From contig CAWCXJ010000004.1 in the NCBI GenBank assembly GCA_963799485.1, positions 1 through 64,000 on the forward strand: DNA of 64,000 nt. The letters run 5' to 3'. The translations under genes were made by a program, and so were the position numbers. Position 1 is the first letter of the stretch. Each line of letters opens with the position of its first letter. The notes beneath the pieces were generated by a model. That model was not told the origin of the DNA. It worked only from the letters and a program-made list of their open reading frames with translations, and did not search any database. The DNA comes from an uncultured Trueperaceae bacterium. Its GTDB lineage: Bacteria > Deinococcota > Deinococci > Deinococcales > Trueperaceae. Shown here piece by piece: positions 922-62,648 of this stretch.

Positions 922-1670
922 TCCGGGTTCTCGTCGTTACGGCTGACCCGGCCCAGTCGCGCGCGCTGTCGGAGGGTTTTCGCGCAGCCTTCGCCGAGCG
1001 GCTGCATTTGGAGGTCGTCGGTGCGCTCTACGCGCTGACCAGTCTAGAGCGGCACCAAGTCGATTTGATTGTGAGCAGCGAGACGCCCGAGGACATGACC
1101 GCACGCGATCTCTGTGACCTCATCAGCGACGACGCGGCGCTTCGTCAGCTGCCCTTTATCTTGCTCTCGGAAGCGGGCGGCGACCTCGTGTTGCCGGATC
1201 ATCAGCTCGTGTTGGCGGCGCAGGCGAGCCCCGCCGAAGTGCTCGCCGCCGCGTTTACCCTGCTGCTTTCTGCGGGCAAGCTCAGCGAAACCCCGCCACG
1301 CGACCCCTTTGAAAGCCGTTACGAACCTCGTGCGGTAAAGATAAGCGGAACGCTCGAGGCGCTGACCCTGTTCGACCTGGCGGTGTCGCTCGGTCAAGGG
1401 AAACGTTCGGGGCGACTTGTCGTGCTAAGCGGCGACCTCGAGGGCACGCTCTACCTTGAAGCGGGCCGCCTGATCCACGCGGCGCTCGCCGAGGCCACAG
1501 GTGAGGACGCCGTGCAGGAGATTTTTGCGCGGGTTCACCATGAACCCAAAACCCGGTTTTTGTTTGCAGACGGGTTGCCCCACAAAATGCCGAAAACCAT
1601 CCGCACCTCGCTCGACAAACTCCTGCTTCAGGTCGCCGTAAACCTCGATGAAGAGAGCGTTCCAGCTTGA
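918..1670 (+). CDS. Degenerate receiver domain + DUF4388 (PATAN) domain protein
   Basis: N-terminal REC-like fold without canonical Asp; C-terminal ISGTLEALTLFDLAVSLGQGKRSGRL...GTLYLEAGRLIHA typical of DUF4388. Confidence 0.75.
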   Translation: MIRVLVVTADPAQSRALSEGFRAAFAERLHLEVVGALYALTSLERHQVDLIVSSETPEDMTARDLCDLISDDAALRQLPFILLSEAGGDLVLPDHQLVLAAQASPAEVLAAAFTLLLSAGKLSETPPRDPFESRYEPRAVKISGTLEALTLFDLAVSLGQGKRSGRLVVLSGDLEGTLYLEAGRLIHAALAEATGEDAVQEIFARVHHEPKTRFLFADGLPHKMPKTIRTSLDKLLLQVAVNLDEESVPA

Positions 1671-1829
1671 CACCTATCAATCCGTTCTTACTTGTTTCGC
1701 AGATGCTTTAACAACCTGTGCCCTCCGGCTATCTGTCCGGTAGAGGGTGCTGGCTGCTGAACTATCTCGACGGCTCGAGTGTCGCCTGAAAACAAGCTAG
1801 GGCCGGGCCGGAGCAGGTTAAATAGACAG

Positions 1830-2054
1830 ATGATTCAAAAACGCTACTTTATCGCCCGCATTTATGCCAACTACGACGAAGCGGTAAGGACTATCGACCT
1901 TATGGGTGAACACGGTGACCCCGACAAAGCCGAACGCGAGCGTCAAGGGCTTAACCGCGCGGGCAAACTCGCTGAGAACACCAGCCTCATTGTGACGGCG
2001 GGCCGGAATTGGGCCGAGGCGGAGCAGGAACTCAAGGCCAGACTAGGCGATTAG
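1830..2054 (+). CDS. Hypothetical protein
   Basis: Open frame with protein-like composition (MIQKRYFIARIYANYDEA...); start uncertain (1779 or 1830). Confidence 0.45.
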   Translation: MIQKRYFIARIYANYDEAVRTIDLMGEHGDPDKAERERQGLNRAGKLAENTSLIVTAGRNWAEAEQELKARLGD

Positions 2055-2112
2055 TAGCGCCGGCATAAATCGCCCGCATTTACGTGCTACACTCGTTTGC
2101 GTGAGGTAAAAT

Positions 2113-2346
2113 GTGGCAACGCGAAACACCGCTTCAGCCTTTCCTGAAGAGATGCTCCGGGAAGTCAAGGTTATTGCGGCAAAACGGGGTACGTCGGTTT
2201 CGGCGATGCTGCGTGAGAAGCTCGAGGCTCTGGCCACGGACGCGAGCGACTACGAAGTGGCGCGCCGGGAGTTTATGAACGTTGCCAGTAAAGGCTTTGA
2301 GCTAGGGGCACACGGGCAAGCCGACTGGACTAGAGACGATTCATGA
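2113..2346 (+). CDS. Ribbon-helix-helix antitoxin (CopG/DUF6364-like)
   Basis: EEMLREVKVIAAKRGTSVSAMLREKL pattern; ATGA overlap with a PIN-like start. Confidence 0.7.
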   Translation: MATRNTASAFPEEMLREVKVIAAKRGTSVSAMLREKLEALATDASDYEVARREFMNVASKGFELGAHGQADWTRDDS

Positions 2347-4178: not shown

Positions 4179-5117
4179 TCAAGCTGCCTCGATTTCACTT
4201 GTCCAGTCCCGCGGTTGCAAAAACGTAAGCATCTCCGCTTCGGGCGAGCCGGGTTCCGGCTGAACCTCAAACGCCCAGCGTGCGTAAGGCGGCAAAGACA
4301 TCAAGATCGCCTCGATGTGTCCACCGGTTTGCAGACCGAAGGTAGTGCCCCGGTCGTATACCAGATTGAATTCTGCGTAGCGCCCACGCCGTAAAAGCTG
4401 CCACTGCCGTTCGCGCTCGCCGTAAAACGCACTTTTACGGCGTTCTAAAATGGGTAGATAAAGCTCAGAAAGCGTCTCTACGCCGTCCTCTACGAAAGCA
4501 AAATCGGTCTCGAAGTCGTTTTGCCCGACCGGCGACAGCTCATCGAAGAAAATGCCGCCGATACCGCGCATTTCACGGCGGTGTTTGATATAGAAGTAGT
4601 CGTCGCAGGTTTTTTTGAGCGTAGCGTAGTCGCCGACCGAGTGCCGGTCGCACTGCGCCTTGAGCGTCCGGTGAAAATGCACGGCGTCTTCGGCAAAGGG
4701 ATAATTGGGCGTCATGTCCGCGCCGCCGCCGAACCACCAGACGTCGCTCTCGTCCCCTTCGTTCCCGACTTCAAAGTAGCGGTAGTTCGCGTGAAAGGCC
4801 GGGGCGTAGGGATTGCGCGGGTGAAAGACCATCGACAAACCGGTGGCAAAGTAGGGTTTGCCTGCGCTGCCGGGGTGTGAGGCGGCGAGGCTCGTCGGCA
4901 CCGCAGCGCCGTGGACGGCGGAAAAGTTGATTCCGGCGCGCTCGAGCACCTGACCGCCCTCTAAGACTCGGGCCGTGCCCCCGCCCCCACCGGGTCGTTC
5001 CCAGCTGTGTACGCCAAAATTTGCGGTAGCGTCTAGCGCCTCAAACGCTGCGATAAGCCGCGCCTGTCCTGCCTGCAAGGTCTCGACTACGCGGTTACGC
5101 CGTGAAACGGTCTTCAC
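4179..5117 (-). CDS. hemF: Oxygen-dependent coproporphyrinogen III oxidase
   Basis: HPRNPYAPAFHANYRYF, WWFGGGADMTP, RGIGGIFFD, RRGRYAEFNLVYDRGTTFGL. Confidence 0.95.
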   Translation of the reverse strand: MKTVSRRNRVVETLQAGQARLIAAFEALDATANFGVHSWERPGGGGGTARVLEGGQVLERAGINFSAVHGAAVPTSLAASHPGSAGKPYFATGLSMVFHPRNPYAPAFHANYRYFEVGNEGDESDVWWFGGGADMTPNYPFAEDAVHFHRTLKAQCDRHSVGDYATLKKTCDDYFYIKHRREMRGIGGIFFDELSPVGQNDFETDFAFVEDGVETLSELYLPILERRKSAFYGERERQWQLLRRGRYAEFNLVYDRGTTFGLQTGGHIEAILMSLPPYARWAFEVQPEPGSPEAEMLTFLQPRDWTSEIEAA

Positions 5118-5584
5118 CGCCCTGCCCCGAGGGTTTTACGGAAATGCACGAGTGTTTCACTAACCTCAAAACCCAACCGCAGATGTGCGTATTGGCTCCC
5201 TGCATTATGATTTTCCGTGTCCGAGGCGAGCTCGGTGCAGCCCTGCGCGTAAGCCCACCTCTCCGCCGCTGCCAAAAGCGCACCGCCAATACCGCGCCGC
5301 CGCGCTTTTGGCACCACAAACCACCCTTCAACGTAGGCCACGGGAGAAGACGTACACCCTTCGGCGTAAGCTCGCAAGCTCAGTTCGGTAAACCCCAGTT
5401 TCGTGGTCTCGCCGTAGATTAGAACCTCAGAGCTAAGTTGAGCACGGGCCAGTGGTGCGTGTTCTAGCAGCAGCTCGAGGTCGCGTCTATGTTCTGCCTC
5501 GCTACAAGCAGGCCAGAGGGCTGCCCGCAACAATAGCAGCTCAGGCAAGTCAGCTGCGGTCGCCTGGCGAACGGGTGAGTTCAC
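5114..5584 (-). CDS. GNAT acetyltransferase, AAC(6')-I-like
   Basis: LRAALWP, ELSLRAYAEGCTSSPVAYVEGWFV, GCTELASDTENHN...HLRLGFE...HFRK resemble chromosomal AAC(6')-Iy/Ic-type enzymes. Confidence 0.8.
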   Translation of the reverse strand: MNSPVRQATAADLPELLLLRAALWPACSEAEHRRDLELLLEHAPLARAQLSSEVLIYGETTKLGFTELSLRAYAEGCTSSPVAYVEGWFVVPKARRRGIGGALLAAAERWAYAQGCTELASDTENHNAGSQYAHLRLGFEVSETLVHFRKTLGAGR

Positions 5585-6606
5585 AGCGGAACCGGCTCCT
5601 GCGTCCGGTCAAACGCCCGCACCACGCCGAGCAGCTGCGTGACCCGCTCCGGGTCGGTCTGCCGCATGATGCCGTGGCCCAAATTGAAGATATGCGGCCC
5701 GCCCAGACCTTCACGGAGAACGCGTTCGGCTTCTGACTTCATGACATGCTCCGGGGCGAGTAAAACTGCCGGCTCGAGGTTGCCTTGCAGCACCTTGCCG
5801 GGCAGAAGCGGGCGCACCTGTGAGAGCGGCGCGCGCCAGTCCACACTGACAACTTCGCACGGCAAAGCTTTAATCTCACCGTAAAGATGCAGCGCGTCTA
5901 CGGCGATGTACAAACGGGGGACGCCGCAGTCTGCTAAAGCCTCAAAGATGCGCGTGTTATACGGTTTGGCAAATTCTCGGTAAGTGCGGGCGTCGTGCAG
6001 GCCCGCCCACGAATCGAACAGTTGAACGGCCTGGGCCCCGGCTTCTATCTGCATTTTGAGATAACGAACCGAAACTTCGGTAAGTTTTTCTAGAAGCTTG
6101 TGTGCGGTCTCGGGAGCATACCGTAAAAACTGCCGAAATTCGTCGTAATCTTTGCTGCCGCCACCCTGCACAATGTAGGTTGCCAGTGTCAGCGGCGCGC
6201 CGCCGAACCCGATTAAAGGCGCGGGACTCTCGCTGCGAATCAGCCGGATGGCTTCAGCAACGTAAGGTGCAATCTCCCCCTGTTCCGGAACGACGAGTTT
6301 GTCTACCGCGTTCTCGCTACGAACGGGATGCTTAAAAACCGGGCCGGGAGAGAAGTCGATGTCCAAACCCATCGGCGGCAAGGGCGTCATGATGTCCTGA
6401 AACAAAATCGCGGCGTCGAGTCCAAACCGGCGAATCGGTTGCAGCGTAATTTCGGCGGCTAGCTCCGGGGTACGGCACATCTCCCAAAAGGTGTACTTTT
6501 CTTTGAGGGCGCGGTATTCAGGCAAGTAGCGTCCGGCCTGGCGCATAATCCAGATGGGGGCGTGCGGGGTGTTTGCGCCGTTGGCGGCGTCTAGAAAAAG
6601 GCTCAT
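5581..6606 (-). CDS. hemE: Uroporphyrinogen decarboxylase
   Basis: PIWIMRQAGRYLPEYR, DAAILFQDI, VQLFDSWAG, LQGNLEP, HIFNLGHGI. Confidence 0.97.
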   Translation of the reverse strand: MSLFLDAANGANTPHAPIWIMRQAGRYLPEYRALKEKYTFWEMCRTPELAAEITLQPIRRFGLDAAILFQDIMTPLPPMGLDIDFSPGPVFKHPVRSENAVDKLVVPEQGEIAPYVAEAIRLIRSESPAPLIGFGGAPLTLATYIVQGGGSKDYDEFRQFLRYAPETAHKLLEKLTEVSVRYLKMQIEAGAQAVQLFDSWAGLHDARTYREFAKPYNTRIFEALADCGVPRLYIAVDALHLYGEIKALPCEVVSVDWRAPLSQVRPLLPGKVLQGNLEPAVLLAPEHVMKSEAERVLREGLGGPHIFNLGHGIMRQTDPERVTQLLGVVRAFDRTQEPVPL

Positions 6607-6842: not shown

Positions 6843-7562
6843 TTATTTCTGGACGGCGTGCCCTTCCGGCGTAAACCGGTAGCCGACACCCCAGACTGTA
6901 TGAAAATAGCTCGGTTCTGCCGGGTCGGGTTCAAAAAGTCGCCGTAAACGCACCACAAAATTATCGACCGTCCGGCTGCTCGGAAACGCGTCGTCGCCCC
7001 ACACCTCGTCCAAGATATCGTCACGGCTGACGACCTCGCCCCGCCGTTTGCTGAGGAGTCTCAAGATTTTAAGCTCGCGCTCACTTAAGGGTTCCTCTTG
7101 CCCCCCCGCAAGCGTCGCCGTCCACGTCCGAAAATCTACCTTGTGACCGCCGAAACGGAGTGCGTCGTCCTTTTCCGGCACTCTGCTATCGCCCCAGCTC
7201 TGCCGTCGCAGCATGTTTTCGACGCGGAGCAAAAATTCAGGCAGGTGAAAGGGTTTGGGCAGGTAATCATCACCCCCGGCGCGGAGTCCCTGAACCCGGT
7301 CGTCGGCTTGACCCTTGGCGCTTAAAAAAAGCACGGGCGTGGTGTCGCCGCGTCCGCGCATGGTGCGGCACACTTCGTAGCCTGAGAGGTGCGGCAGCAT
7401 CACGTCTAGAATAACCAGGTTCGGATGCTCGTTTTGCCAGCAGCGCAGGCCGCTGCTGCCATCGGGTGCGTGCAGCGTGGTGTAACCTTCGTCTTGCAGG
7501 TTGTCGGCCAAGATGTCGGCGATGGGAGTTTCGTCTTCGATAATCAAAACAGTCGGGGCCAT
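6843..7562 (-). CDS. OmpR/PhoB family response regulator
   Basis: REC domain (IIEDE, LDVMLP, KPF) and winged helix (SRTVDNFVVRLRR, TVWGVGYRF). Confidence 0.95.
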   Translation of the reverse strand: MAPTVLIIEDETPIADILADNLQDEGYTTLHAPDGSSGLRCWQNEHPNLVILDVMLPHLSGYEVCRTMRGRGDTTPVLFLSAKGQADDRVQGLRAGGDDYLPKPFHLPEFLLRVENMLRRQSWGDSRVPEKDDALRFGGHKVDFRTWTATLAGGQEEPLSERELKILRLLSKRRGEVVSRDDILDEVWGDDAFPSSRTVDNFVVRLRRLFEPDPAEPSYFHTVWGVGYRFTPEGHAVQK

Positions 7563-7563: not shown

Positions 7564-8733
7564 TCAGCTTTCTAAAGTGCGGGACTGAGGGGGGCGTTCG
7601 GATGATGCGGGTTTAGCAACTGCAGGCCGGCTCGAGCGCCGTGGCAAGACGATAGTAAAGCGGCTGCCGCGCCCGGTTTGTACGTCGAGCGGCGCGTCGC
7701 AGCGTACCCAGCCGTTCATCGCTTCGGTCATCGAGCGCACCAGATGCAGCCCCAGCCCGACACCTGAAGTCGCGCGCGTCAGCTCATCGCCGACGCGGTA
7801 AAAGGGATCGAAGATACGAGCTTTTTCAGTTTCACTCAGGCCGATACCGGCGTCTTCGACGTGAACAAGTGCCAGATGCCTTTGCGCCTCGAGCCTCACC
7901 TTTACGGTTTTACGGGTAGCGGGGCTGTACTTTACGGCGTTGTCGAGCAGGTTGCTTAAGACAATCCCGAACGCCGCCGGGTCGAGCGAGACGTTGAGCG
8001 TGTCCGCTGGGTAGTCGACGCTGAGCTGTGCGCCGCGCGCCTCGAGCCCGCTCCGTTCGCGTTCTATCACCCCGCGCACCACGGTGCCCAGGTCGGCGGG
8101 GGTGAGGGTGTGAACTGTAGGAGAATGCTCGAGCCTTGCCGACGCCAGTATCTGCTCACTCATCGCCTCTAGGCGCGTAACTTCGCGCTCCATCCGGCCC
8201 AGATAATCGCGCTGTTTTTCAGGTTTTAGAGGCCGGTAGAGCGCTGTTTCGACGAGCAGGCGGAGCGTGCTGATGGGCGTTTTGAACTCGTGCGACATCG
8301 CGTTCAAGAAGTTTTGCTGGCGTTTTTTGAGGTCGCGTTCGGCGCGCAAGCTTATGGCGATGATGTAAAGTCCGGCCAAGATAACGAGCGCGTAAAACGG
8401 GCCTTCGAAGGCGAACATCCGCAAATGGCGCGTCTGCTCGGCACGAAAGGCACGTAGGCGCGCCGGGTCGACCGTAAAGCGTCCGCCCGTAAAGCTCAAG
8501 TGCGGATACGCCTCTATAAGCTGCGCTTGGACGGACGGTTCAGGCCGCGCACGGTAGAGCAGGCCGGCAGTCGCCGCGTCACGCTCCCAAGCAGCAACGG
8601 TGTTCTCGGTTACGCGGCCTATATAGCGCTGCTGAAAGATAATCCACCACGTGACCTGGGCGAGCAAAAAAATTACGACAACGGCAAACGCGACCCGTGT
8701 GGCACGGTGAGAGGGGATACGGGAGCGCTTCAT
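7564..8733 (-). CDS. Membrane sensor histidine kinase
   Basis: Two TM segments; H-box SHEFKTP, N-box NLLDNAVKY, G boxes DAGIG and GVGLGL. Confidence 0.95.
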   Translation of the reverse strand: MKRSRIPSHRATRVAFAVVVIFLLAQVTWWIIFQQRYIGRVTENTVAAWERDAATAGLLYRARPEPSVQAQLIEAYPHLSFTGGRFTVDPARLRAFRAEQTRHLRMFAFEGPFYALVILAGLYIIAISLRAERDLKKRQQNFLNAMSHEFKTPISTLRLLVETALYRPLKPEKQRDYLGRMEREVTRLEAMSEQILASARLEHSPTVHTLTPADLGTVVRGVIERERSGLEARGAQLSVDYPADTLNVSLDPAAFGIVLSNLLDNAVKYSPATRKTVKVRLEAQRHLALVHVEDAGIGLSETEKARIFDPFYRVGDELTRATSGVGLGLHLVRSMTEAMNGWVRCDAPLDVQTGRGSRFTIVLPRRSSRPAVAKPASSERPPQSRTLES

Positions 8734-8789: not shown

Positions 8790-9833
8790 TTAACCCAGCC
8801 AGCCTTTTTGAGCGGCCTCGAGCGCATAGTAGCTGACGACTAAAGCCGCCCCGGCCCGTTTGATCGCCGTAAAACTCTCGTGTACCGCCGCCGCTTCGTC
8901 GAGCGCGCCCACAGCTGCCGCCGCTTTAAGCGCGGCGTATTCGCCCGAAACATGATAGGCCACCAACGGCAGGTTACTCAGCTGACGCATCTGGTACAAG
9001 ATATCGAGATACGCCAGAGCCGGTTTGACCATCAGCATGTCGGCACCCTCGGCTTCGTCCAGGGCGACCTCGAGCCGCGCCTCACGCGGGTTGCGAAAGT
9101 CCATCTGATAGGTTTTGCGGTCATTGGGTGGCCTCTCAGTGTCGTCTTCGTCGGCGCTGCCTTTGGGCACCGAACCCGCCGCGTCGCGGAAGGGGCCGTA
9201 AAACGCCGAGGCGTATTTTACGGTGTAGGCCAAAATACCGGTGTTTTGAAACCCCGCCCGGTCGAGTGCGGCGCGCAGATAGCCGACGCGCCCGTCCATC
9301 ATGTCCGAAGGGGACACCATGTCGGCCCCGGCTTCGGCGTGCAGCAGCGCCATCGCTGCCAAAGCCGAAAGGCTGGGGTCGTTGTCGATTACGACGCCGC
9401 GCGCGGTTTTGTGCAGCAGCCCGCAGTGCCCGTGGTCGGTATACCCGCAGAGGCACACATCGGTCATCAACACGATGTCGTTGCCAAAAGCGCGGCGAGC
9501 GGCGCGTAAAGCCTGGGCGACGGGGCCGCTAGGGTCGTGTGCCTGTACGCCGTTTGCGTCTTTGAGTTCAGCCGGAACGACGCCGAAGAGCATCGCGGCC
9601 CGGACCCCAAGCTTGAGGCCGTGCTCCAAGTCGCGCAAAAGCAAATCCGGACTCAGCCGCGCCACCCCCGGCAGTGAATTGACGGGTTCGCTGACATTTG
9701 TCCCGGAAACCACAAAGTAGGGCATAATCAGGTCTTCAGGGCGCACGTGGGTCTGCGCTACGAGGTCGCGGAGCGCAGCCGTGGTGCGGAGCCGCCGGGG
9801 GCGCTGAATAAGGGATGCTCTGTCCTGAATCAT
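8790..9833 (-). CDS. hemB: Porphobilinogen synthase (Zn-type)
   Basis: RPRRLR, DVCLCGYTDHGHCG, SDMMDGRV, KYASAFYGPFRDA, MVKPA. Confidence 0.97.
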   Translation of the reverse strand: MIQDRASLIQRPRRLRTTAALRDLVAQTHVRPEDLIMPYFVVSGTNVSEPVNSLPGVARLSPDLLLRDLEHGLKLGVRAAMLFGVVPAELKDANGVQAHDPSGPVAQALRAARRAFGNDIVLMTDVCLCGYTDHGHCGLLHKTARGVVIDNDPSLSALAAMALLHAEAGADMVSPSDMMDGRVGYLRAALDRAGFQNTGILAYTVKYASAFYGPFRDAAGSVPKGSADEDDTERPPNDRKTYQMDFRNPREARLEVALDEAEGADMLMVKPALAYLDILYQMRQLSNLPLVAYHVSGEYAALKAAAAVGALDEAAAVHESFTAIKRAGAALVVSYYALEAAQKGWLG

Positions 9834-10525
9834 AGTTCTCCTAGGGGTGCTGGTGACGCAGCCGCAAGCACGGCCTGAACGACACCCTCGGCGTCAGGTG
9901 TCCGGGCTTTGTAAGCGTGCCAGCCGCGTTCCCGAACCGCTTGACAGGTACTCGGCCCGAGTGCGACCAGTTGCGCTCGTCCCAATGTTTCAGGAAGTGC
10001 AGCAACCGCCGAAGGGCTCGCCAATACCACGAGGTCAGCGTCTAGCTGAGTCACAGGTTGCGCGGTGGTGCGGTATAGAACGGCTTTTTCAACCGTAAAA
10101 CCCGCGCCGCTCAGTCCTGCTGAGAGTGTCGGCAAAGCCTGTTCACCGCAAGGGAGCCCGACGCGGCCCGGCGGCGAGACGCGGGCTAGAAACAGCTGCA
10201 AAAAACCTTCGGCGTGTGCCGGTTCAGCGACGAGTGAAACGGTGCCACCCGCGCTTCCCAGCTCTTCGGCGGTCTTTTGCCCGACTGCGCCGATCTTGCA
10301 AGTATCGAAAGAAAGCCCCAAAGTTGTCCACGCTTTTACGGCGGTGCGGCTGGTAAACAAGAGCCAGTCTGCGCCGAGTAACCGTTCGGCTGCCAGTTGA
10401 CTCTCTTCAGCGGGCAAAAACTCGGTTTTAACGAGCGGTTCGTGCACTACGTCAAACCCTTGTGCGCCGAGCGCAGCTGCCAAACCCTCGAGTCGCCCTT
10501 CGCTATGGGTCAACAAAATTTTCAT
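9830..10525 (-). CDS. hemD: Uroporphyrinogen-III synthase
   Basis: LLFTSRTAV, AVGQKTA, ASPSAV, LGPST motifs; between hemC and hemB. Confidence 0.85.
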   Translation of the reverse strand: MKILLTHSEGRLEGLAAALGAQGFDVVHEPLVKTEFLPAEESQLAAERLLGADWLLFTSRTAVKAWTTLGLSFDTCKIGAVGQKTAEELGSAGGTVSLVAEPAHAEGFLQLFLARVSPPGRVGLPCGEQALPTLSAGLSGAGFTVEKAVLYRTTAQPVTQLDADLVVLASPSAVAALPETLGRAQLVALGPSTCQAVRERGWHAYKARTPDAEGVVQAVLAAASPAPLGEL

Positions 10526-11432: not shown

Positions 11433-12603
11433 AGGGAGCCTGCGTAAAAAGGTTGGTTTCGGCCAAAAACGTCTCTGCTGCTTCAAACCCGTAGGTGCGG
11501 GCGACGGCCCGAAGACCCTGCACCGGCACGCGGGCAAAGCGGTTCGCTAACCGTTCGGCCTCTTCTTGTGAAAGCTCGGGGAGGGTGTCCTGCACGGTTT
11601 GCAAATACTGCTGCCGGAGCTTTTGAATCGACGGGCCGAGTTGCCGCTCTGCCCAGTTCGTAAGCGCCAGCTCGAGCTCGCGTTGCAAAAGTGTTTCGGC
11701 CTCGGCGAGGCGACCTGTCAGCGTTTCGCGGCGGAGCTTGCCCGCGTCTTGCAGTGTGTCGATATCGAGGACGCTCAGACCGGGCAGCCCTACCACGTCG
11801 GTTTCGACGTTGCGCGGGACGCCTAAATCGACGATGAGTTTGAGATCGGGCAAGGTCTGTACAAACGTCCGGTCGACAAGGCCGCGCACCGGCGTCGCGC
11901 AGACAAGCGCGTTTACGGGCGGCGGAACCGCCAAAAAGGCTTCAAGGCTTGAGCTCCCGGCTCCCAAATGCTTGGCGAGCTGCCGCGCCCGCGGCGCGCT
12001 GCGGTTGACGATGATGAGGTCGATATTCTCCTGGCTGGCGAGCGCTTTGGCGGCGAGCGCACCCATCTCGCCGGCACCGAGAACTGCGACGGTGCCGCCA
12101 CGGGGCAGCAAGCGCGCCAACTCGGGTCGTGCAAGACTAAAAAGCGACGTGTCGAGCGGCGCGAGCGCGACCTCCCGGCGTACTTTTTTGGCAATCTTGA
12201 GGGCCGTTTGAAAGGCAAAGTTCGTCGTCGGGCCGACCGTACCGAGGGCCTGCGCCGCAGAAAACGCGCTCCGCACCTGCGCCATAATCTGGTCTTCGCC
12301 GGGATTTAGGGAATCGAGCGAAGTAGCGATGCGGGTGAGCTGCTCCAAAGCGCCGTCGCCGGTATACGCGTAGGGGCGAAAGTCGGGTGCGTGTGCTGCT
12401 AACGTCTGCCGCGCTAAGAGCGCGTCCACCCCTTTAGGCAGCGCCACCACGAGGTCGCAGCGGTTACAGGTGATGATCGGAACCCATTCGGCAAAGCCTG
12501 TTGGTGAGGGGGTTTGAGCCGCGCCGAAAGCGCTTTGCCACGCCTCGAGCGCCGCCGCGCCGCCGCGCCGGTGCGAAACCCCGATAAGTGCAAGTCGTTC
12601 CAC
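11419..12603 (-). CDS. hemA: Glutamyl-tRNA reductase
   Basis: GVSHR, TCNRC catalytic motif, SLDSLNPGEDQIMAQVR, GAGEMG, DLGVPRNV. Confidence 0.92.
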   Translation of the reverse strand: MERLALIGVSHRRGGAAALEAWQSAFGAAQTPSPTGFAEWVPIITCNRCDLVVALPKGVDALLARQTLAAHAPDFRPYAYTGDGALEQLTRIATSLDSLNPGEDQIMAQVRSAFSAAQALGTVGPTTNFAFQTALKIAKKVRREVALAPLDTSLFSLARPELARLLPRGGTVAVLGAGEMGALAAKALASQENIDLIIVNRSAPRARQLAKHLGAGSSSLEAFLAVPPPVNALVCATPVRGLVDRTFVQTLPDLKLIVDLGVPRNVETDVVGLPGLSVLDIDTLQDAGKLRRETLTGRLAEAETLLQRELELALTNWAERQLGPSIQKLRQQYLQTVQDTLPELSQEEAERLANRFARVPVQGLRAVARTYGFEAAETFLAETNLFTQAPYEPN

Positions 12604-14141: not shown

Positions 14142-14357
14142 GCCGTTATGCTACTCCCAGGCCGTAAAGCCGGGTGCAGTGGACAGTGCATGGACAGCAC
14201 ACTCGAGCCGTACAAAACCCGTTTTTACGTGTACTTCGCAAATTCGCATAATTTAACGACATTGTGCCAGCCATCTTTTTGAAGTGGTTTTACAGCGGTG
14301 CCGCCACGCCACCGGATTAAACACGCTGAAAATGCTTGAAGTTTTTGTAAGACCGGT

Positions 14358-19066: not shown

Positions 19067-19189
19067 TTGTACAAGTTTACGGCAATATTCGGTAGTTTAC
19101 GGCAACATCGGCAATACGGCGATAGTCGCAAAGTCGGGTATGTTTTACGTCCGACACGGCGGCCCGCTACGTGCGGCATACTTAAGAGC

Positions 19190-41718: not shown

Positions 41719-41779
41719 GCGCTAAAAAACGCGCCGACCTGAGCCGACGCGTCTTTGTAGTCAGGTTTTGCCGTAAAAT

Positions 41780-49775: not shown

Positions 49776-49854
49776 AACTCTAGCATGTGTCCGGAGGTGG
49801 GTCAAGCGTGACGAGGTGCGTTTTACGGTGATCATTTGCAGGTAGCATGGCAGG

Positions 49855-50799
49855 GTGAAGGTGCGGCGCAGTGCTTGGATAATCCTCTGGAGTTTTTTGG
49901 GGCTAGGTGCGGGACTGTTTGTTAGCTGGCGTGCGTCGCTGCTGCTTTGGCCTCTAGCACTCGTCCTGATAGCGGTGTGGCTGGCGCGTTGGCCGAGGCC
50001 GGGGGTGTGGCTACTGGCTGCGACGTTTGGCGTTATGTCGGTAAGTCCGTTTGTCGGCGACCTCGAGCAACAATCTCCCGCGCCCCACATGCGCGAGACC
50101 GCGAGCACCCGGCGAGACGCGCAGACCTGGGACGGGGTGCAAACACTGTCGGTTCGTAACAGTGCCGGCGACATCACCGTGACGGGCGGCGGAACTTGGC
50201 GACTCCGGGCGCGCTACCGCTGGGGCACAGCGGTGCGCGGTTTACCCGATAGACTTTTGATCTCGGAGCGCGGCAAAACACTGGATTTTACGGGACTCGA
50301 GCCCAGCTGGTCGCAAGCACCCTTGCGCGGGACCGAAGCGCAACTTCGGGCAACGGTACCGCGCCGCCTCAACCTGTTAGTCGACGCCCGTAGCAGCGAC
50401 GTAACGGCCCAAACCCTGGCCTCGGCAAACGTCGAGACTAACCTGGGCGACGTCACCCTCAGCGGTATTGCAGGCGCGGCAGTCGCCCTGACCGACGTCG
50501 GTAACGTCTTTATAACCGATGCCGGCGGGGCGGTCGAGGCCGAAACCCTGATAGGCGACATCTGGCTCGAACCCCGCGCTTCAACAGCGCCGATTTTAGC
50601 CAAGGCGGACGTCGGCAATATCGCTCTGGTCTTGCCACCCGGTACGAACGCCCGTATTACGGCGACCTCGACCTCACGGGAGCTGCCGGAAAACTTCAGA
50701 CGGGTGTCCCCGACGAGAGGAGAACTCGTGCTAGGCAAGGGCTCGAGGCTGATTGTCCTCACGACCCGTATTGGCAAGATCAGACTTGTCCAGCGCTAA
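49855..50799 (+). CDS. Membrane-anchored DUF4097-like beta-repeat protein
   Basis: N-terminal TMs; repeated T..GDV/GNV/GDI strands. Confidence 0.7.
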   Translation: MKVRRSAWIILWSFLGLGAGLFVSWRASLLLWPLALVLIAVWLARWPRPGVWLLAATFGVMSVSPFVGDLEQQSPAPHMRETASTRRDAQTWDGVQTLSVRNSAGDITVTGGGTWRLRARYRWGTAVRGLPDRLLISERGKTLDFTGLEPSWSQAPLRGTEAQLRATVPRRLNLLVDARSSDVTAQTLASANVETNLGDVTLSGIAGAAVALTDVGNVFITDAGGAVEAETLIGDIWLEPRASTAPILAKADVGNIALVLPPGTNARITATSTSRELPENFRRVSPTRGELVLGKGSRLIVLTTRIGKIRLVQR

Positions 50800-51665
50800 T
50801 CGGTACTCGCGGTGATGGGCTCACGCACCGGCAGACTCGCTGCGAGCGCCGCCCCTAAAATAAGCGCGCCGCCCAAAAGCCCCCACGTGCCGAGGCGTTC
50901 ACCGAACAAAAGTGCACCCAAAAGCGCCGCGACGACCGGCTCGACGCTGGCAACCAACACCGCCCGTGACGCCTCGACGCGTTTTAGACCGGCGTAGTAG
51001 AGGCCGTAAGCCGCGTAGGTCGACAGTGCTGCAAGCAGCAGCAAAAATCCCCATACCGCCGGGCTTTTGGCCGAAAAATCTACGAACAGCAATAGTCCCA
51101 GCGCCCCGAACGGCATTACGAACGCGTTGATCGTGACTGGGCTGTAGCGCGCGAGCGCCCATTTGCCGAACAGATAGTAACTGCTATAACTTAGCGCCGC
51201 CGTAAGCCCCCATAACAGAGCGGGCGCTGAGACATTGACGCCCGCGCCGCCGCCCCTGGATACGAGCACCACGCCCGTGAGCGTGAGAGTCAGCAGGCCG
51301 AGTTTACGGCGCGTTAGCCCTTCACGCAAAAAGAACCACGCGGCTACGGCGACAAACGCCGGGGCGCTGTAGAGCAAAATCGACGCCAGACTGACGCCGC
51401 CGTACTGCACCGCAAACGTATAAGACGCGTAAAAAAGCGTGATGCCGACGAGCGAAAAGGCGGCGAAAACGAGCAAATCGCGTCTTCGCGCTACCTTGAG
51501 CTGCCGGGTCGAAGCGGCGTGGGCGAGAAACATCCCGCCTGCAAATAGCGCCCGCCAGAAGGCCAGCTCGAGCGGCCCTACCCCCGCTGCCAAAATGTTG
51601 TAAGAAAAGACGCCGATAAGCCCCCAGAGCACCGCCGCCGTAAAAATAAGCAGGTAACCTTTCAC
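50796..51665 (-). CDS. EamA/DMT transporter
   Basis: About 10 TMs; AAVLWG, LLYSAPAFV, SVEPVVA. Confidence 0.92.
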   Translation of the reverse strand: MKGYLLIFTAAVLWGLIGVFSYNILAAGVGPLELAFWRALFAGGMFLAHAASTRQLKVARRRDLLVFAAFSLVGITLFYASYTFAVQYGGVSLASILLYSAPAFVAVAAWFFLREGLTRRKLGLLTLTLTGVVLVSRGGGAGVNVSAPALLWGLTAALSYSSYYLFGKWALARYSPVTINAFVMPFGALGLLLFVDFSAKSPAVWGFLLLLAALSTYAAYGLYYAGLKRVEASRAVLVASVEPVVAALLGALLFGERLGTWGLLGGALILGAALAASLPVREPITASTD

Positions 51666-55136: not shown

Positions 55137-55916
55137 ATGACGGGCGCACACGACGCCGCACCGGGAACACACAGGATTCTCGCGCTCGGCGATGTTCACG
55201 GGCAGTGGGCCGAGCTGTGGGGTGCGCTTCGGGCAGCAGGTATGGCAAGCGACGTAGGCGAACCGACTGTGCCGGTTTTGGAAAACGCTGCCGAAATCAT
55301 CTTGATCGGCGACCTGGTGCATTACAAAGACGCGGCAAGTTACGCTTACGCGGTCGGTGAAGAAGTTTTCGACGCGGGCAACCCGAAGCAGCTGCGGCGG
55401 GCAGCCAAGGCGCAAATCCGCGAACTCTACCGTTTTAAGGATTACATGGAACGCGCCGGGGGTTGCGTCAGCGTGATTTTGGGCAACCACGATGAGGCGG
55501 CCCTGACGCACGAATATACCCTGGCACTGCGCGGCGGCTTGGAGCATAACGAATTCGACCCTGCCAAGGGCGGGTTGCCCCTCCCCGACGATTTAAGGGC
55601 GTGGATGGCAAGTTTTCCCCGTCAGAAAATCCTCGGCAATATTCAGTTTGCCCACGCCGGGCCGCTACCGGGGATGCAGTACTACGACGACTTCTTTTAT
55701 CATGACCCCGATACCAAGGGGTGGTGGCGTGACAAACCCGAGCTGGCGCAACAGTCGGGTTACCGTTTCGGGGTTTACGGGCACACGGTTATGTCTGAAG
55801 GCATTTTGCTCGATAAAGCGAACATGTTTGCGATGGTCGACGCGCTCGCCAAACGGCAATACCTCGAGCTCCAGCTCCAGGGCGGCGACCTCTACGCTGA
55901 AATTAAGACCTTCTAG
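55137..55916 (+). CDS. Calcineurin-like metallophosphoesterase
   Basis: GDVHG, GDLV, GNHD, HAG, GHT motifs. Confidence 0.9.
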   Translation: MTGAHDAAPGTHRILALGDVHGQWAELWGALRAAGMASDVGEPTVPVLENAAEIILIGDLVHYKDAASYAYAVGEEVFDAGNPKQLRRAAKAQIRELYRFKDYMERAGGCVSVILGNHDEAALTHEYTLALRGGLEHNEFDPAKGGLPLPDDLRAWMASFPRQKILGNIQFAHAGPLPGMQYYDDFFYHDPDTKGWWRDKPELAQQSGYRFGVYGHTVMSEGILLDKANMFAMVDALAKRQYLELQLQGGDLYAEIKTF

Positions 55917-55917: not shown

Positions 55918-56454
55918 GTGCCGGGCAGGGTTTCGGCAGTTAGTCTCAGCGCAGCCCACACATTTAGTAAAGCACCGGCATCGGTTATTAAACTCGTCGC
56001 CGGACTCGGCGTCTCCGGCGACGCACACGCAGGTCAGGTGGTACAACACCGTTCGCGTGTTCGCGCCGATCCTACTCAGCCCAATTTACGGCAAGTTCAT
56101 CTAATCCACGAAGAGCTTTTTGCGATGTTGGCGTACAAAGGCTCTGCCGTAAAGCCTGGAGAACTCGGCGAAAACATCACCACAAAAAGGCTTTATCTGC
56201 CAGCGCTGCCGACTGGGACGCGGTTACATATCGGTGAGGCGGTTCTCGAGGTTACCGGCCTCCGAAACCCGTGCGCGCAGATAGACGGGTTTCAAAAGGG
56301 ATTACTGGGAGCTGTTTTAGCTTGCAACGCCGAAGGTAAGTTCCGCAAAGCCGGAATTATGAGCGTCGTGCTGGCGGGTGGCGAAGTAAGCCCGGGGGAC
56401 GACATCGGGCTCGAGCTGCCGCCGGAACCGTGGGCAAAGCTGAAGCGGGTTTAG
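55918..56454 (+). CDS. MOSC domain protein
   Basis: GDAH, RQVHLI, GENITT, TGLRNPCAQID. Confidence 0.88.
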   Translation: MPGRVSAVSLSAAHTFSKAPASVIKLVAGLGVSGDAHAGQVVQHRSRVRADPTQPNLRQVHLIHEELFAMLAYKGSAVKPGELGENITTKRLYLPALPTGTRLHIGEAVLEVTGLRNPCAQIDGFQKGLLGAVLACNAEGKFRKAGIMSVVLAGGEVSPGDDIGLELPPEPWAKLKRV

Positions 56455-56864
56455 CTCGCGGTTTTGAGCGTGCGTACACCGCGTAGAGGCCACTGCAGGG
56501 GTTGCTGCCCGGATTCTTGTACGTAGTAAAATAGTGCGGACTTCGCTTAATTCGTTCATACGAACAAACAAGCCGAGGCTAGCGAACGGGAATGATACGG
56601 AGGTTCTTAATACCGTAAACGAACCTTGGGGTCTCCACGCCTTGACCAACCGGTTTGTATCCGAAGATAGGCTTTTACGAGTAATTCGTACCGGACTATA
56701 AAACTCTGTTTGTCGCCTGTGTATTTTGTGTCGTATACTGGCCCCAGTGCCTACGCGAAGGATGAAGTTTCCTTTACATAACCCTGGTTTAGTGCCGGGG
56801 TTTCGCCTGCTAGGATGCGCCCTATGATGTGCGTTTCCCCTCTTTTCAGATTCTCAGGTGCTAG

Positions 56865-59629: not shown

Positions 59630-60178
59630 TTAGAGTTTAGGCAACGTTACGCCGCGCTGTCCCTGATACTTGCCGTTACGTGACCTGTAGCTGACTTCAG
59701 GTTTGTCGCCCTGAAAAAAGAGCAGTTGTACGATGCCTTCGTCCGCGTAAACTTTGGCAGGGAGCGGGGTCGTGTTCGACAGCTCGAGCGTTACGTGTCC
59801 CTCCCAACCGGGCTCTAAGGGGGTCACGTTCGCAACGATGCCGCAGCGTGCATAACTCGACTTGCCGAGTGCCACGACCATCACGTCTTCGGGTACGCGC
59901 AGATACTCGACCGAGCGCGTCAGCACAAACGAGTTGGGCGGGATGATGCAGGTTTCTCCCTCCGCCTCGACGAGCCCGCGCAGATCGAAGTTTTTGGGGT
60001 CGACCACGGTGTTGAAAACATTGACGAAGATGCGCCATTCAGGGGCGGCGCGCAGGTCGTAACCAAACGACGACAGCCCGTATGAGATGACGCCTTGCCG
60101 CACCAGACGATCCTCAAAAGGCTCGATCATGCCTTTGTGCGCTTCTTGCCGAATCCACCAGTCGGGTTTGATACTCAT
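59630..60178 (-). CDS. dcd: dCTP deaminase
   Basis: [38 protein letters not shown]. Confidence 0.96.
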
Positions 60179-60210
60179 GCGCTGAAGTTTACCCCGGATT
60201 TGGCGACGCG

Positions 60211-60765
60211 CTAAGGTGCCGTAAAAGAAACACCCAGTGAAACATCAAAAGCTTGACCGAGTTCGGGAAAAAACAGCGGGCGGTGGGTGTAGACGAGAAT
60301 CAAGGACGTTTCGGCTGAGAGCTGATAACTGAGCGCGGCGCTGAGCGCAACGCCGAACGACCCCGCCACGTAGCTGAGGCCCGTCCCGGCGTAGCTGCGA
60401 AAACCGAACACGTCGTCAGCGCCGGGTAAAAAGCTGTACCAGCCACCCATATCGAGCGTCAGGTCGCCGTCGAAAGCAAAAACCGCGTAAAAGGCGGCGG
60501 TCTCGGTCAGCGGCTGAATCCCGCGAAAGCCGATACGCAGGTGCGGCAAAAGTCCTTCGGCGCTGGGTCTGTAACCGAGACCCGACTCGAGCCACAAGCT
60601 AGGGGGCATCGGCTCCGGTTCGGGTGAGGACGTTTGCTGTGCTGATGTTGGACTCTGTGACGATGTTTGACTCGCCGCCGTTTGTGCCGATTCTTGCGCG
60701 TGTGCTGTCCCTGTCAGGTTTCCGGCAAGGCTGAGGCAAATGAAGACAAAGAGGGTAGCGCGCAT
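60211..60765 (-). CDS. Exported protein, possible small beta-barrel
   Basis: Signal peptide, S/T/Q linker, amphipathic strands ending VSLGVSF. Confidence 0.6.
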
Positions 60766-60812
60766 AAAGGCAGTCTACCGCAGAGACATCACTGCGGCGT
60801 TATAGTCGGGTT

Positions 60813-62648
60813 ATGACGTTGCAACCGCCGCCCGTAAGCAAAAAAGAGCTGGTACGGCAGCTGAGTGAAGCCGCGAGACTCCTCGAGCTGCTCGGCGCGG
60901 ACGGCTACCGGGTCAACGCTTACGCGGGCGCGGCGCGGCAACTCGACGCGTTTTCCGGCGATTTTACCGAGCTGTTCAGTGCGCGGCGGCTTGCCAGTCT
61001 GCGCGGTATCGGCGACGGGTTGGCGAGTGAGATGTACGCGCTAAGGACGCAGCCCCGGCTTGCTGTGCTGGACGAACTTTACACCCAGATTCCGGAGGGC
61101 GTCCGTGGGCTTTTGCGTATCTCGGGTCTGGGGCCGAAAAAGGTGCGTCTACTCTGGCTTGACGGGATTGAGAATATCACCGAACTCGTCGCAGCCGTAG
61201 AAGACGGACGCGTTGCCAAGCTCAAAGGTTTCGGGACTAAAAGCGCACGAACGATTTTGGAAGCTGCCAAGTTTGCCCTGCGCGCTTCGGCGCGGCTCCG
61301 GCTCGATGAGGCCGAGATGCTGGCTGCAGCGTTTACCGAAGCCTTTACGCAGACGTTCCCGGCAGCGACTCTCACGTGGGTCGGAGAACTGCGGCGGAGC
61401 CTCGAGACCGTCGGAGAACTGCGCGCCCTCGTCGTCGGCGTTACGGCAGAAGCGTTGGAAAAGGAACTCGAGACCTTTGGCGGCGAAAGCGAAGCAACCG
61501 AGACCGGCTTTAGCGTGACCTTTGCCGAAAGAACGCTCGAGCTTATCCCTACCCACGCCTCCGCGCTGGGAACGGCGCTGGCACTTACGACCGGCGACGA
61601 AGCGTTTACTGCGGCGCTTCAGGAACGCGCTGCAGAGAAGGGCTTGCGGCTTACGCGGGTGGGGCTGCTTAAGGCTGAAGAACGCCTTGCGACCCCCTCT
61701 GAAACCGACGTGTTTGAGTTTCTCGAGCTGCCTTATACGCCACCCGAACGCCGGGACGTGCCGCTCGGCTCGGCTACCGAAAACCTGATTACGCTCAGAG
61801 ATTTGCGTGGGCTGGTGCATAACCACTCGAGCTGGTCGGACGGGGCTGCGCCGCTCCGCGAAATGGTAGAAAAGGCGCGCGCCCTCGGCTACGCCTACCT
61901 GGCGATGGCCGACCATTCCAAAACGTCGTACTACGCCAACGGCTTAAGTATTGAGCGGGTGTTTGCTCAGGCAAAAGAGATCAGGGCCATTCAAGAAGAG
62001 CTGAAGCGTGAGGGCTCGGCGTTTCGGGTGCTGCACGGGCTCGAGGTCGATATCATGCCGGACGGTACACTCGACTATCCCGACGAGGTGCTCGCCACCC
62101 TCGATTACGCTGTCGTCAGCGTGCATCAGCACTTTACGCTGGGTAAAGCCAAGCAAACAGAGCGCATCGTCCGCGCCGTACAAAACCCCTACGCGCACAT
62201 CTTGGCGCATATGACGGGCCGCTTGCTGCTCCACCGCCCGAGCTACGAAGTCGACGTCGAGGCGGTTTTACGCGCGTGTGCCGAGACAGGTACATTTGTC
62301 GAGCTCAACGCCAGCCCCTATCGCCTCGACCTCGACTGGCGGCTGGTGATCCGCGCCCGCGAACTCGGCTGCCGCTTTTCAATCGACCCCGACGCACACC
62401 ACCCGGACGGTTACAAAGACCTCCGCTACGGCGTTATGATGGCCCGTAAAGCCGGTTTGACGGCCCTGGACGTGGTAAACACTGCGCCTACAGCCGAGGC
62501 TTTCCTGACGCGCCTCGCGGCTCAGCCCGACCTGCTCGGTTCGTTTTCCGTAGCTGCATCAGAACGTGTTGACACCCTCTTAGGTGCGTGCTACCCTGCG
62601 TATTCGGACGCGGACGAGAGTACGCGTGTTCGAACCGACGAAGACTAG
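60813..62648 (+). CDS. polX: DNA polymerase X / PHP protein, non-canonical
   Basis: HhH motifs GIG, GLGPKK, GFGTKS; PHP motifs HNHS, DHS, LEVDI, SVH, DAHH. Confidence 0.92.
   Translation: MTLQPPPVSKKELVRQLSEAARLLELLGADGYRVNAYAGAARQLDAFSGDFTELFSARRLASLRGIGDGLASEMYALRTQPRLAVLDELYTQIPEGVRGLLRISGLGPKKVRLLWLDGIENITELVAAVEDGRVAKLKGFGTKSARTILEAAKFALRASARLRLDEAEMLAAAFTEAFTQTFPAATLTWVGELRRSLETVGELRALVVGVTAEALEKELETFGGESEATETGFSVTFAERTLELIPTHASALGTALALTTGDEAFTAALQERAAEKGLRLTRVGLLKAEERLATPSETDVFEFLELPYTPPERRDVPLGSATENLITLRDLRGLVHNHSSWSDGAAPLREMVEKARALGYAYLAMADHSKTSYYANGLSIERVFAQAKEIRAIQEELKREGSAFRVLHGLEVDIMPDGTLDYPDEVLATLDYAVVSVHQHFTLGKAKQTERIVRAVQNPYAHILAHMTGRLLLHRPSYEVDVEAVLRACAETGTFVELNASPYRLDLDWRLVIRARELGCRFSIDPDAHHPDGYKDLRYGVMMARKAGLTALDVVNTAPTAEAFLTRLAAQPDLLGSFSVAASERVDTLLGACYPAYSDADESTRVRTDED
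62569..62597 (+). promoter_or_regulatory. tRNA-tuf operon promoter
   Basis: TTGACA-17-TACCCT with extended TG, inside the polX tail. Confidence 0.65.

Follow-up and report, generated by a model that had tools for sequence, protein, structure and literature searches.

The heptamer CCGTAAA recurs about once per kilobase, on both strands alike, in the genome of an uncultured Trueperaceae bacterium. We analysed the first 64 kb of one contig of this genome (C4; GenBank CAWCXJ010000004.1, positions 1 to 64,000), here called the window, together with the whole assembly that holds it (G000; 3.655 Mb, 15 contigs, 59% G+C) and the other genomes of its genus (G001 to G005; six in all). The excess of the word is a signal at the level of the DNA, it is confined to one Truepera clade, and it resembles the imprint that selective DNA uptake leaves on a genome. 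We tentatively read CCGTAAA as a lineage-specific self-DNA word, a tag of the DNA-uptake type, although on sequence evidence this reading falls somewhat short of being probable.

Abundance, anatomy and strand symmetry of CCGTAAA

An exact search of the window found 64 copies of CCGTAAA, 30 on the plus and 34 on the minus strand (Table 1). The initial annotation, made by manual scan, had put the number slightly low at about 59 (about 30 CCGTAAA and 29 TTTACGG), but all twelve of its example positions carry the word in the orientation implied, both of its inverted pairs are there and converge [4420(+)/4434(-) and 9196(+)/9217(-)], and 63 of the 64 copies fall within the range it gave (1636..62450), with one further copy at 63371. 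Its expectation of 5-6 copies from base composition agrees with the ∼5.8 that we calculated from base frequencies, while 100 dinucleotide-preserving shuffles of the window gave 9.46 ± 2.99 copies, with a largest value of 16. As it had also stated, the ribosomal and transposon DNA is free of the word, with zero copies across the 23S and 5S rRNA genes (22512-25613) and zero in 38572-40426, which spans the remnant of an IS630-type insertion sequence (IS) transposase (38713-39204).

Across the genome, CCGTAAA occurs 1,667 + 1,607 = 3,274 times, or 0.9 per kb. This is an excess of 9.9-fold over an order-0, 4.5-fold over an order-2 and 3.4-fold over an order-3 Markov model, and 7.7-fold over the reversed control word AAATGCC (424 copies). 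Among the 420 words made of the same letters it ranks first, at 3,274 against a median of 264 (12-fold), and the second, CGTAAAC (1,692 copies), has six letters in common with it at a shift of one base. Runs of A5/T5 are 5.6-fold over composition in this 59% G+C genome, and composition-based estimates are therefore inflated for words ending in AAA; once the genome's liking for A-runs and CG is discounted, the word-specific excess is ∼3.4-8-fold. The sole word that outscores CCGTAAA in the genome is the palindrome CTCGAG.

Genes were predicted with a crude codon-usage caller of our own (3,039 genes, 82% coding). Coding DNA holds 2,617 sites (0.87/kb) and intergenic DNA 624 (0.95/kb), with 38 sites straddling gene boundaries and a few counted twice in overlapping genes, and this equal density, together with the balance of the strands, bears out the symmetric spread over genes and spacers that had been proposed. 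One explanation of such a word would be an artefact of codon usage or of a frequent dipeptide, as TTT-ACG, TTA-CGG and TAC-GG are all legal codon contexts. However, 20 synonymous-codon shuffles yielded 702 ± 18 sites and 20 codon-order shuffles 502 ± 26, which is 3.7-5.2 fold too low, and the intergenic density equals the coding density. The five frames without an in-frame TAA hold 517, 389, 557, 662 and 492 sites, against 71, 91, 310, 202 and 27 under the synonymous-codon shuffle, and the word is enriched on both gene strands. Thus, neither of the outcomes by which the initial annotation would have been overturned, loss of the enrichment under a codon-aware null or its reduction to one dipeptide in one frame, was observed. 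In addition, there are species that have orthologous proteins without the word. Since codon-aware shuffling fails to remove the enrichment, the signal lies at the DNA level, and on the frame counts and the two shuffles we rejected the artefact, which we consider to have practically no chance of being correct.

A flank logo of the 3,274 sites, a check that had been suggested at the outset, holds information only at positions -2 (C, 0.50), -1 (G, 0.54) and +1 (A, 0.47), so that the seven invariant positions can be weakly extended to cgCCGTAAAa; the 10-mer CGCCGTAAAA has 540 copies, against 24 for its reversed control. With nothing further out, CCGTAAA stands alone. Membership in some longer repeat or in a mobile element was rejected on this logo and on orthologous alignments, which show point differences and no insertions.

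Plus- and minus-strand counts are near equal on every contig of G000. Nine contigs exceed 200 kb, and the forward share of their copies is 0.42-0.56; in 36 of 36 intervals of 200 kb it is 0.41-0.59, and 400-kb blocks of other chromosomes are likewise balanced (183/160 in G005 and 93/85 in G001). The GC skew of G000 is only about ±0.01 and, because it is so weak, replichores could not be mapped from it. A strand skew of the type seen for FtsK-orienting polar sequences (KOPS) or Chi sites was rejected, given that contigs, intervals and chromosome blocks are all balanced; the symmetry and density are those of the DNA uptake sequences (DUS) of Neisseriaceae and the uptake signal sequences (USS) of Pasteurellaceae, as the initial annotation had suggested.

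The word is not present everywhere in the assembly. Contigs C2 and C3 are motif-poor (0.25-0.27/kb), and whole contigs of such low density could be binning contaminants. Motif-free blocks of 11-24 kb also exist, and we annotated the seven longest. Five of these carry mobile-element genes, comprising several transposases in one, a phage integrase and a Mutator transposase in another, a phage integrase among genes of unknown kind in a third, RepB primase, RusA and ParB in a fourth, and a type IV secretion system coupling protein with a transposase in the fifth. The remaining two hold accessory metabolism genes at 66% G+C, and LptF/G and peptidase genes. Together with the empty IS630 remnant and the low density of C2 and C3, this answers the proposed check for depletion in mobile DNA. 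The motif-free blocks retain the family-wide excess of CTCGAG (0.95-2.75/kb), which suggests an origin in other Trueperaceae. All three C5 DNA methylase matches of G000 fall on contigs C2 (88 kb) and C3 (53 kb), and C2 also has RepB/ParB/RusA genes and many transposases; the two contigs may be plasmids, prophages or DNA of a related organism that was binned in (contamination estimate 4.6%).

Distribution among relatives and evolution of the sites

To compare genomes, we used the ratio of the motif count to the count of the reversed control AAATGCC. Within the genus, this ratio is 7.9x in G005 (3405/430), 7.7x in G000 (3274/424), 6.3x in G002 (371/59), 4.2x in G001 (2005/474), 2.3x in G003 (603/264) and 1.4x in G004 (407/283). 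G002 has 68% G+C, and its composition-based excess is only 2.3x (47 vs 20 in 400 kb). In other genera (75 genomes, 35 Trueperaceae genera) the ratios are mostly near or below 1, with a few outliers at 2-4x, namely G030 (507/120) and the genera g4, g37 and g40 (∼2x). A tree of hemH, hemE, hemB and hemA, built from the seven taxa with all four genes (G004 and five other loci were excluded for missing genes), groups G000, G005 and G001 on the same side of a fully supported split (100%), with G003 outside and G002 more basal. The enrichment of CCGTAAA is thus confined to one Truepera clade.

A second word of the same kind occurs elsewhere in the family. A k-mer scan found AAGAGGT at 25 and 40 copies per 21 kb in two Trueperaceae loci without CCGTAAA (L005 and L007). 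All three sampled genomes of genus g40 carry it in abundance (6,319, 5,851 and 6,219 copies; reversed controls 678, 713 and 645), equally on both strands, which amounts to 1.3-1.4/kb and 8-10x the control, while outside g40 the ratio is at most 4.7x (766/225 in G000). In a 400-kb block of one such genome, G090:C1:1700001-2100000, AAGAGGT is the top heptamer (259 + 261 copies, control 52). Apart from a weak preference at +1 (C, 0.52) it too is a stand-alone word, and CCGTAAA in this block is close to its baseline (50 vs 34). AAGAGGT/ACCTCTT shares with CCGTAAA the family, the length, the density class, the strand symmetry and the stand-alone anatomy with a weak flank, but it is unrelated in sequence and belongs to a different genus. 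Cross-occurrence is slight, as Truepera genomes have only ∼3x AAGAGGT and the AAGAGGT genus only ∼1.5-2x CCGTAAA. Unrelated heptamers with identical anatomy in two genera argue for a retargetable sequence-reading system, and against a peculiarity of one word.

To follow individual sites, 400-kb blocks of G005, G001 and G002 were aligned with G000 by blastn, keeping the best non-overlapping high-scoring segment pairs of at least 300 bp, with 419 same-composition words as the conservation control. In G005 (81.5% identity), 156 of 278 G000 sites are exact (56.1%), compared with 31.2% of control words and 34.0% when only CpG-containing control words are used; conversely, 156 of the 258 sites of G005 itself are common to G000. 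For G001 (78.9% identity) the figures are 65 of 233 (27.9%) against 23.0%, with 65 of its own 112 sites (58%) common to G000. In the motif-poor G002 (72.7% identity) only 9 of 205 G000 sites are exact (4.4%), fewer than the 10.5% of control words, and 9 of its own 25 are common to G000. Orthologues that lack the word carry point changes, 1-5 against G005 and 1-6 against G002, with single differences at all seven positions (commonest: 4 T/C, 6 A/G, and 2 C/T or C/G), and the sites therefore originate in place through substitutions, most of them since the divergence from G002. Existing sites are then kept more often than matched words. A three-way alignment of G000, G005 and G001 (30 kb) has 43 sites, too few to conclude on gains and losses: 11 in G000 only, 8 in G005 only, 1 in G001 only, 9 in G000 and G005, 6 in G000 and G001, 1 in G005 and G001, and 7 in all three.

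Excess conservation would also be expected of a functionless mutational sink, in which a context-dependent bias of mutation or repair lets the word be gained readily but seldom lost. Mild enrichment is seen for several one-mismatch neighbours (1.5-2x, order-1/2 models), the commonest orthologous differences are transitions (4 T/C, 6 A/G, 2 C/T), and the genome favours A-runs (AAAAA 5.6x) and CG-containing words, all of which speak for a sink. Yet no neighbour is strongly depleted (CTGTAAA 0.86-1.4, CCATAAA 1.5-1.8), and the differences fall at all seven positions, so no single base-change rule explains a target of seven letters. Furthermore, a sister genus of similar G+C drives a wholly different word, and resident mobile DNA with the CTCGAG excess lacks CCGTAAA. 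For the particular case of very-short-patch (VSP) type repair, no Vsr endonuclease was found and C5 methylases are confined to C2 and C3; with CTGTAAA and CCATAAA undepleted, this was rejected. Overall, we regard a mutational sink as improbable.

Candidate readers of the word

In the uptake-tag reading, a process acting on DNA and not on protein would raise CCGTAAA on the native chromosome to a density of about one per kb, and the most likely such process would be biased DNA uptake during natural transformation, as for DUS and USS. A surface receptor of the competence pilus would prefer fragments bearing the word, a candidate being a ComZ-type tip pilin with its neighbouring minor pilins; word-bearing fragments from dead kin would then be taken up and recombined more often, such that point mutations creating the word would spread and those destroying it would be replaced. 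Most recombination-sized pieces of the core genome would come to carry a copy, and recently acquired mobile DNA would be without. That Truepera is competent, that its uptake is biased by the word and that the ComZ-like protein acts as receptor is what we infer.

The imprint matches the DUS/USS signature in most of the respects that sequence can address. Like DUS (receptor ComP) and USS (predicted receptor ComN), CCGTAAA is a short non-palindromic word at ∼1/kb with both strands equal, and the density of DUS and USS is close to its 0.9/kb. Genes and spacers both contain it, the frame in which it would read as a stop codon is avoided, it differs between lineages, foreign DNA has little of it, and point mutations create it. 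The word is common to close relatives, with another word elsewhere, though the two words are not dialects of one another. Transformation machinery, with three minor pilins beside the candidate tip pilin, is also present. G000 encodes ComEC with an adjoining ComEA (C7:108-893 and 1522-1689), DprA and a PilQ-type secretin, and four N-terminal-methylation pilin signals cluster at C5:83.7-88.1 kb, adjoining scpB; these genes are widespread and no proof of competence. CCGTAAA differs from DUS and USS in length, in the absence of terminator pairs, in its over-dispersed spacing and in phylum, as it belongs to Deinococcota, and for its candidate receptor a ComZ-type tip pilin would take the place of ComP or ComN.

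This candidate is a 722-residue DUF4900 protein encoded inside the pilin cluster (G000 C5:84875-87043), some family relatives of which have PilX_N. Compared with solved structures by sequence, it gave no match at E ≤ 1. An AlphaFold model from a 33-sequence alignment (predicted local distance difference test score, pLDDT, 79.7; predicted template modelling score, pTM, 0.75) predicts a long N-terminal helix and a β-rich body, and with this model Foldseek returned only three chains of Thermus ComZ at E ≤ 0.001 (6QVI; E 4e-6 to 1e-5), the next match having E 0.16; the global TM to ComZ is low (0.20-0.28). The ComZ architecture, a pilin plus a β-solenoid, is described in the consulted portions of PMC6561018, which report its binding to DNA as without sequence dependence. 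Judged by the model, the 722-residue protein is a putative ComZ-type pilus-tip protein, having the rare pilin-plus-β-solenoid architecture of Thermus thermophilus ComZ/PilA2 and, like it, lying among minor pilins. The scpB gene that adjoins the cluster is a chromosome-segregation gene, and such a gene is also found in Thermus PilA-ComZ loci, according to excerpts of the published descriptions. The differences are that no sequence similarity to Thermus ComZ is detectable and that Thermus ComZ binds without sequence preference. To our knowledge, no hyper-abundant word has been described for Thermus. The protein is fast-evolving: identity is 52% in G005 and 43-54% in G002, G004 has a fragment at 36%, and neither this query nor the Pfam model detected it in G001 or G003. 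Across the six genomes, the reversed-word ratio hinted at a relation between ComZ presence and enrichment, but composition did not, and this relation is not relied on.

Several observations weigh against an uptake tag. The core of CCGTAAA is 7 bp (∼10 with the weak flanks), shorter than the 9-12 bp of DUS and USS. Inverted pairs and terminators are not enriched, unlike in DUS/USS: of the neighbours up to 120 bp apart, 302 are direct, 110 convergent and 102 divergent, no inverted spacing stands out, and the favoured direct spacings are mostly multiples of three, as expected within genes; by comparison, about half of DUS and USS sit in terminators according to sections of a preprint (10.1101/2025.10.24.684340). 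Counts per 50 kb are over-dispersed and not even (mean 45, variance 162). The two Trueperaceae words are unrelated, whereas DUS dialects differ by 1-3 bases, and the excess conservation of sites would be shared by a mutational sink. Detection of the ComZ family does not track the enrichment cleanly, since it was not found in G001 (100% complete, 4.2x) but was found in G002, where the enrichment is 6.3x by the reversed control and only 2.3x by composition. Finally, Thermus takes up DNA unselectively, and we found no documentation of natural competence of Truepera in the literature searched.

A second candidate reader is a methyltransferase or chromosome-bound protein, for which CCGTAAA would be a recognition site kept for structure, repair or methylation-dependent recombination, making it an analogue of highly iterated palindrome 1 (HIP1) of cyanobacteria. 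Non-palindromic words of 6-7 letters are typical targets of type IIL, ISP and III enzymes, and G000 encodes an MmeI-family type IIL restriction-modification enzyme (979 residues, C5:165411-168350) and a type III-like Mod (1,084 residues, C4:103697-106951) with a helicase-type Res neighbour. PF02384 matches number 6, 11 and 10 in the motif-rich genomes against 2, 3 and 2 in G002-G004, and the palindromic CTCGAG is hyper-abundant in the same family. HIP1 (GCGATCGC) is the other known hyper-abundant word, conserved between genomes and read by orphan methylases (excerpts of PMC5861425, PMC4390886 and PMC13756078), and it aids transformation in a methylation-dependent manner according to parts of a preprint (10.1101/2024.09.10.611283). 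HIP1, the function of which is still debated and has been linked to transformation, resembles CCGTAAA as a hyper-abundant short word in genes and spacers with sites conserved beyond controls; however, it is palindromic, phylum-wide and has cognate orphan methylases, whereas CCGTAAA is asymmetric, belongs to one clade and has no cognate methylase that we could find. The closer parallel to HIP1 is the family-wide excess of CTCGAG.

Orthologue searches with four methyltransferases count against a methylation-linked site, as not one of the four is common to the three rich species G000, G005 and G001. For the MmeI-family gene, G005, G001 and G003 offer only partial matches (31-37%), a type ISP enzyme with 81% identity between G005 and G001 has no tblastn match in G000, and the 761-residue product of one of two HsdM-like genes in G000 has only 27-29% matches. 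The type III-like Mod was not found in G005 with this query, and its orthologue in G001 is interrupted, the 81-86% match being spread over two frames and skipping the central 250 residues; this gap may reflect either exchange of the specificity domain or damage to the gene. The orthologue tests covered these four, and the other HsdM-like gene of G000 encodes 528 residues (C7:552718-554304). C5 methylases are limited to the motif-poor C2 and C3, and restriction targets are usually avoided, not enriched. We consider a methylation-linked or HIP1-like site rather unlikely.

A third possibility is a Chi-like signal, read by an AddAB-type helicase-nuclease in the repair of double-strand breaks; it would lack skew because breaks in these bacteria, exposed to desiccation and radiation, would fall at random and independently of replication forks. 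Chi sites are lineage-specific, over-represented, non-palindromic core-genome words of 5-8 letters, as is CCGTAAA. G000 encodes an AddA-like protein of 952 residues, with a UvrD helicase and a PD-(D/E)XK nuclease, and a 772-residue upstream partner; with AddA counterparts in five of the five congeners searched, the machine therefore exists. One contributor to Chi skew would also be weak here, since the GC skew is nearly nil. However, the AddA-like gene is equally present in motif-poor congeners, and RecC was not found in the nine genomes searched. Every Chi known to us is strongly co-oriented with replication (∼70-80%), whereas no contig, 200-kb interval or 400-kb block goes beyond 59:41; a Chi without skew would have no precedent, though one can be imagined if breaks occur at random. 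Known Chi words are also G-rich, which CCGTAAA is not, and it is denser than most Chi sites of 7-8 letters. A Chi-like signal seems to us a poor candidate.

Of the three readings offered by the initial annotation (an uptake signal, a nucleoid-protein site and a methylation-linked motif), the first gained from the symmetry, density, lineage specificity, depletion in mobile DNA, in-place origin and conservation of the sites, the second was neither strengthened nor weakened, and the last gained no support, as none of the four methyltransferases tested is common to the rich species. If CCGTAAA is an uptake tag, Trueperaceae might even have evolved sequence-selective uptake at least twice, with a private heptamer for each genus and a fast-evolving ComZ-type receptor, although this extension is doubtful. 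In the consulted part of 10.1101/2025.10.24.684340, the definition of uptake-enhancing sequences comprises DUS (Neisseriaceae) and USS (Pasteurellaceae). An uptake tag in Truepera would be the first such system outside Proteobacteria, with a receptor class unlike ComP and ComN. Self-DNA-selective uptake is known from two proteobacterial families only and the origin of such tags is an open question, so the same genomic imprint in a distant phylum, one known for efficient but unselective transformation, bears on it directly. Two unrelated words and a gradient of enrichment in sister species would provide a natural series in which to follow the birth, amplification and loss of a tag and its reader protein. 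Even as a signal of repair or chromosome structure, the word would be a clean marker of native against foreign DNA, for finding islands and for checking Trueperaceae metagenome bins. We found no description of CCGTAAA, or of any hyper-abundant word of Trueperaceae, in the literature (mainly titles and abstracts, supplementary files excluded), and the full-text matches to CCGTAAA, among those listed, are apparently primers, probes and decoy oligonucleotides.

Other words of the family and features of the window

CTCGAG, often GCTCGAGC, is the most over-represented word of G000, with 7,252 sites (6.2x by composition). Relative to composition, it is enriched ∼3-10x in the majority of the top Trueperaceae loci, as well as in each of the four congener blocks, with 599-919 sites per 400 kb in the blocks of G000, G005, G001, G002 and G090, and is thus a family-wide, HIP1-like iterated palindrome. 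A link between CCGTAAA and CTCGAG was rejected, as their counts per 50 kb are uncorrelated (r = 0.04). We found no paper in the literature that ties CTCGAG to Trueperaceae. The words ACTCATTGCT (22 copies in 400 kb of G090, against 0.4 expected) and CTCATTGCT (76 copies in G000, against 45 expected) represent another shared short word or small repeat. Words of the GGATTGAAAC type (44 in 400 kb, G002:C1:100001-500000) are probably an array of clustered regularly interspaced short palindromic repeats (CRISPR).

Table 1. Copies of CCGTAAA and motif-free features in the 64-kb window (positions from the first letter of the window; minus-strand copies read TTTACGG on the plus strand).
Feature	Position	Strand	Remark
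CCGTAAA copy	1636..1642	+	
CCGTAAA copy	4389..4395	+	within hemF open reading frame
CCGTAAA copy	4420..4426	+	converges with 4434
CCGTAAA copy	4434..4440	-	converges with 4420
CCGTAAA copy	5135..5141	-	
CCGTAAA copy	5879..5885	+	
CCGTAAA copy	6121..6127	+	
CCGTAAA copy	6942..6948	+	
CCGTAAA copy	7901..7907	-	
CCGTAAA copy	7909..7915	-	
CCGTAAA copy	7931..7937	-	
CCGTAAA copy	8472..8478	+	
CCGTAAA copy	8487..8493	+	
CCGTAAA copy	8867..8873	+	
CCGTAAA copy	9196..9202	+	converges with 9217
CCGTAAA copy	9217..9223	-	converges with 9196
CCGTAAA copy	10093..10099	+	
CCGTAAA copy	10335..10341	-	
CCGTAAA copy	11912..11918	-	
CCGTAAA copy	14162..14168	+	
CCGTAAA copy	14472..14478	+	
CCGTAAA copy	17554..17560	-	
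CCGTAAA copy	17791..17797	+	
CCGTAAA copy	17833..17839	-	
CCGTAAA copy	18182..18188	-	
CCGTAAA copy	18271..18277	-	
CCGTAAA copy	18951..18957	-	
CCGTAAA copy	19076..19082	-	
CCGTAAA copy	19096..19102	-	
CCGTAAA copy	20040..20046	-	
CCGTAAA copy	20307..20313	-	
CCGTAAA copy	21023..21029	-	
CCGTAAA copy	22299..22305	+	final copy ahead of rRNA genes
23S and 5S rRNA genes	22512..25613	+	motif-free
CCGTAAA copy	27174..27180	+	
CCGTAAA copy	28381..28387	-	
CCGTAAA copy	28645..28651	+	
CCGTAAA copy	28930..28936	-	
CCGTAAA copy	29424..29430	-	
CCGTAAA copy	30189..30195	-	
CCGTAAA copy	31252..31258	+	
CCGTAAA copy	32211..32217	-	
CCGTAAA copy	33622..33628	+	
CCGTAAA copy	34967..34973	-	
CCGTAAA copy	35360..35366	-	
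CCGTAAA copy	35480..35486	+	
CCGTAAA copy	37082..37088	-	
CCGTAAA copy	38565..38571	+	final copy ahead of IS remnant
IS630-type (DDE_3) transposase remnant	38713..39204	-	motif-free
CCGTAAA copy	40427..40433	+	
CCGTAAA copy	41771..41777	+	
CCGTAAA copy	42762..42768	+	
CCGTAAA copy	42888..42894	-	
CCGTAAA copy	44951..44957	-	
CCGTAAA copy	46290..46296	+	
CCGTAAA copy	49822..49828	-	
CCGTAAA copy	50287..50293	-	
CCGTAAA copy	51303..51309	-	
CCGTAAA copy	51638..51644	+	
CCGTAAA copy	55774..55780	-	
CCGTAAA copy	56085..56091	-	
CCGTAAA copy	56147..56153	+	
CCGTAAA copy	56613..56619	+	
CCGTAAA copy	60219..60225	+	
CCGTAAA copy	62444..62450	+	
CCGTAAA copy	63371..63377	-	beyond the range first given

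The HemB protein encoded in the window has its closest named records in Truepera sp. assemblies (82-84% amino acid identity), followed by other Trueperaceae. The window also holds genes that we take to fit Deinococcota, namely PolX with a PHP domain, Uma2, and 23S-5S genes without a 16S gene upstream. The region 22512-25816 contains the 23S, the 5S and one tRNA gene and is preceded not by a 16S gene but by a polyphosphate kinase gene (19738-21828); the rRNA operon is therefore split. A 160-residue open reading frame on the minus strand (10522-11004) matches the porphobilinogen deaminase domain at positions 131-205 only, plus the C-terminal domain, and the N-terminal half of the enzyme may sit in the adjoining open reading frame 11055-11537; a frameshift or an error of assembly may have divided hemC in two.

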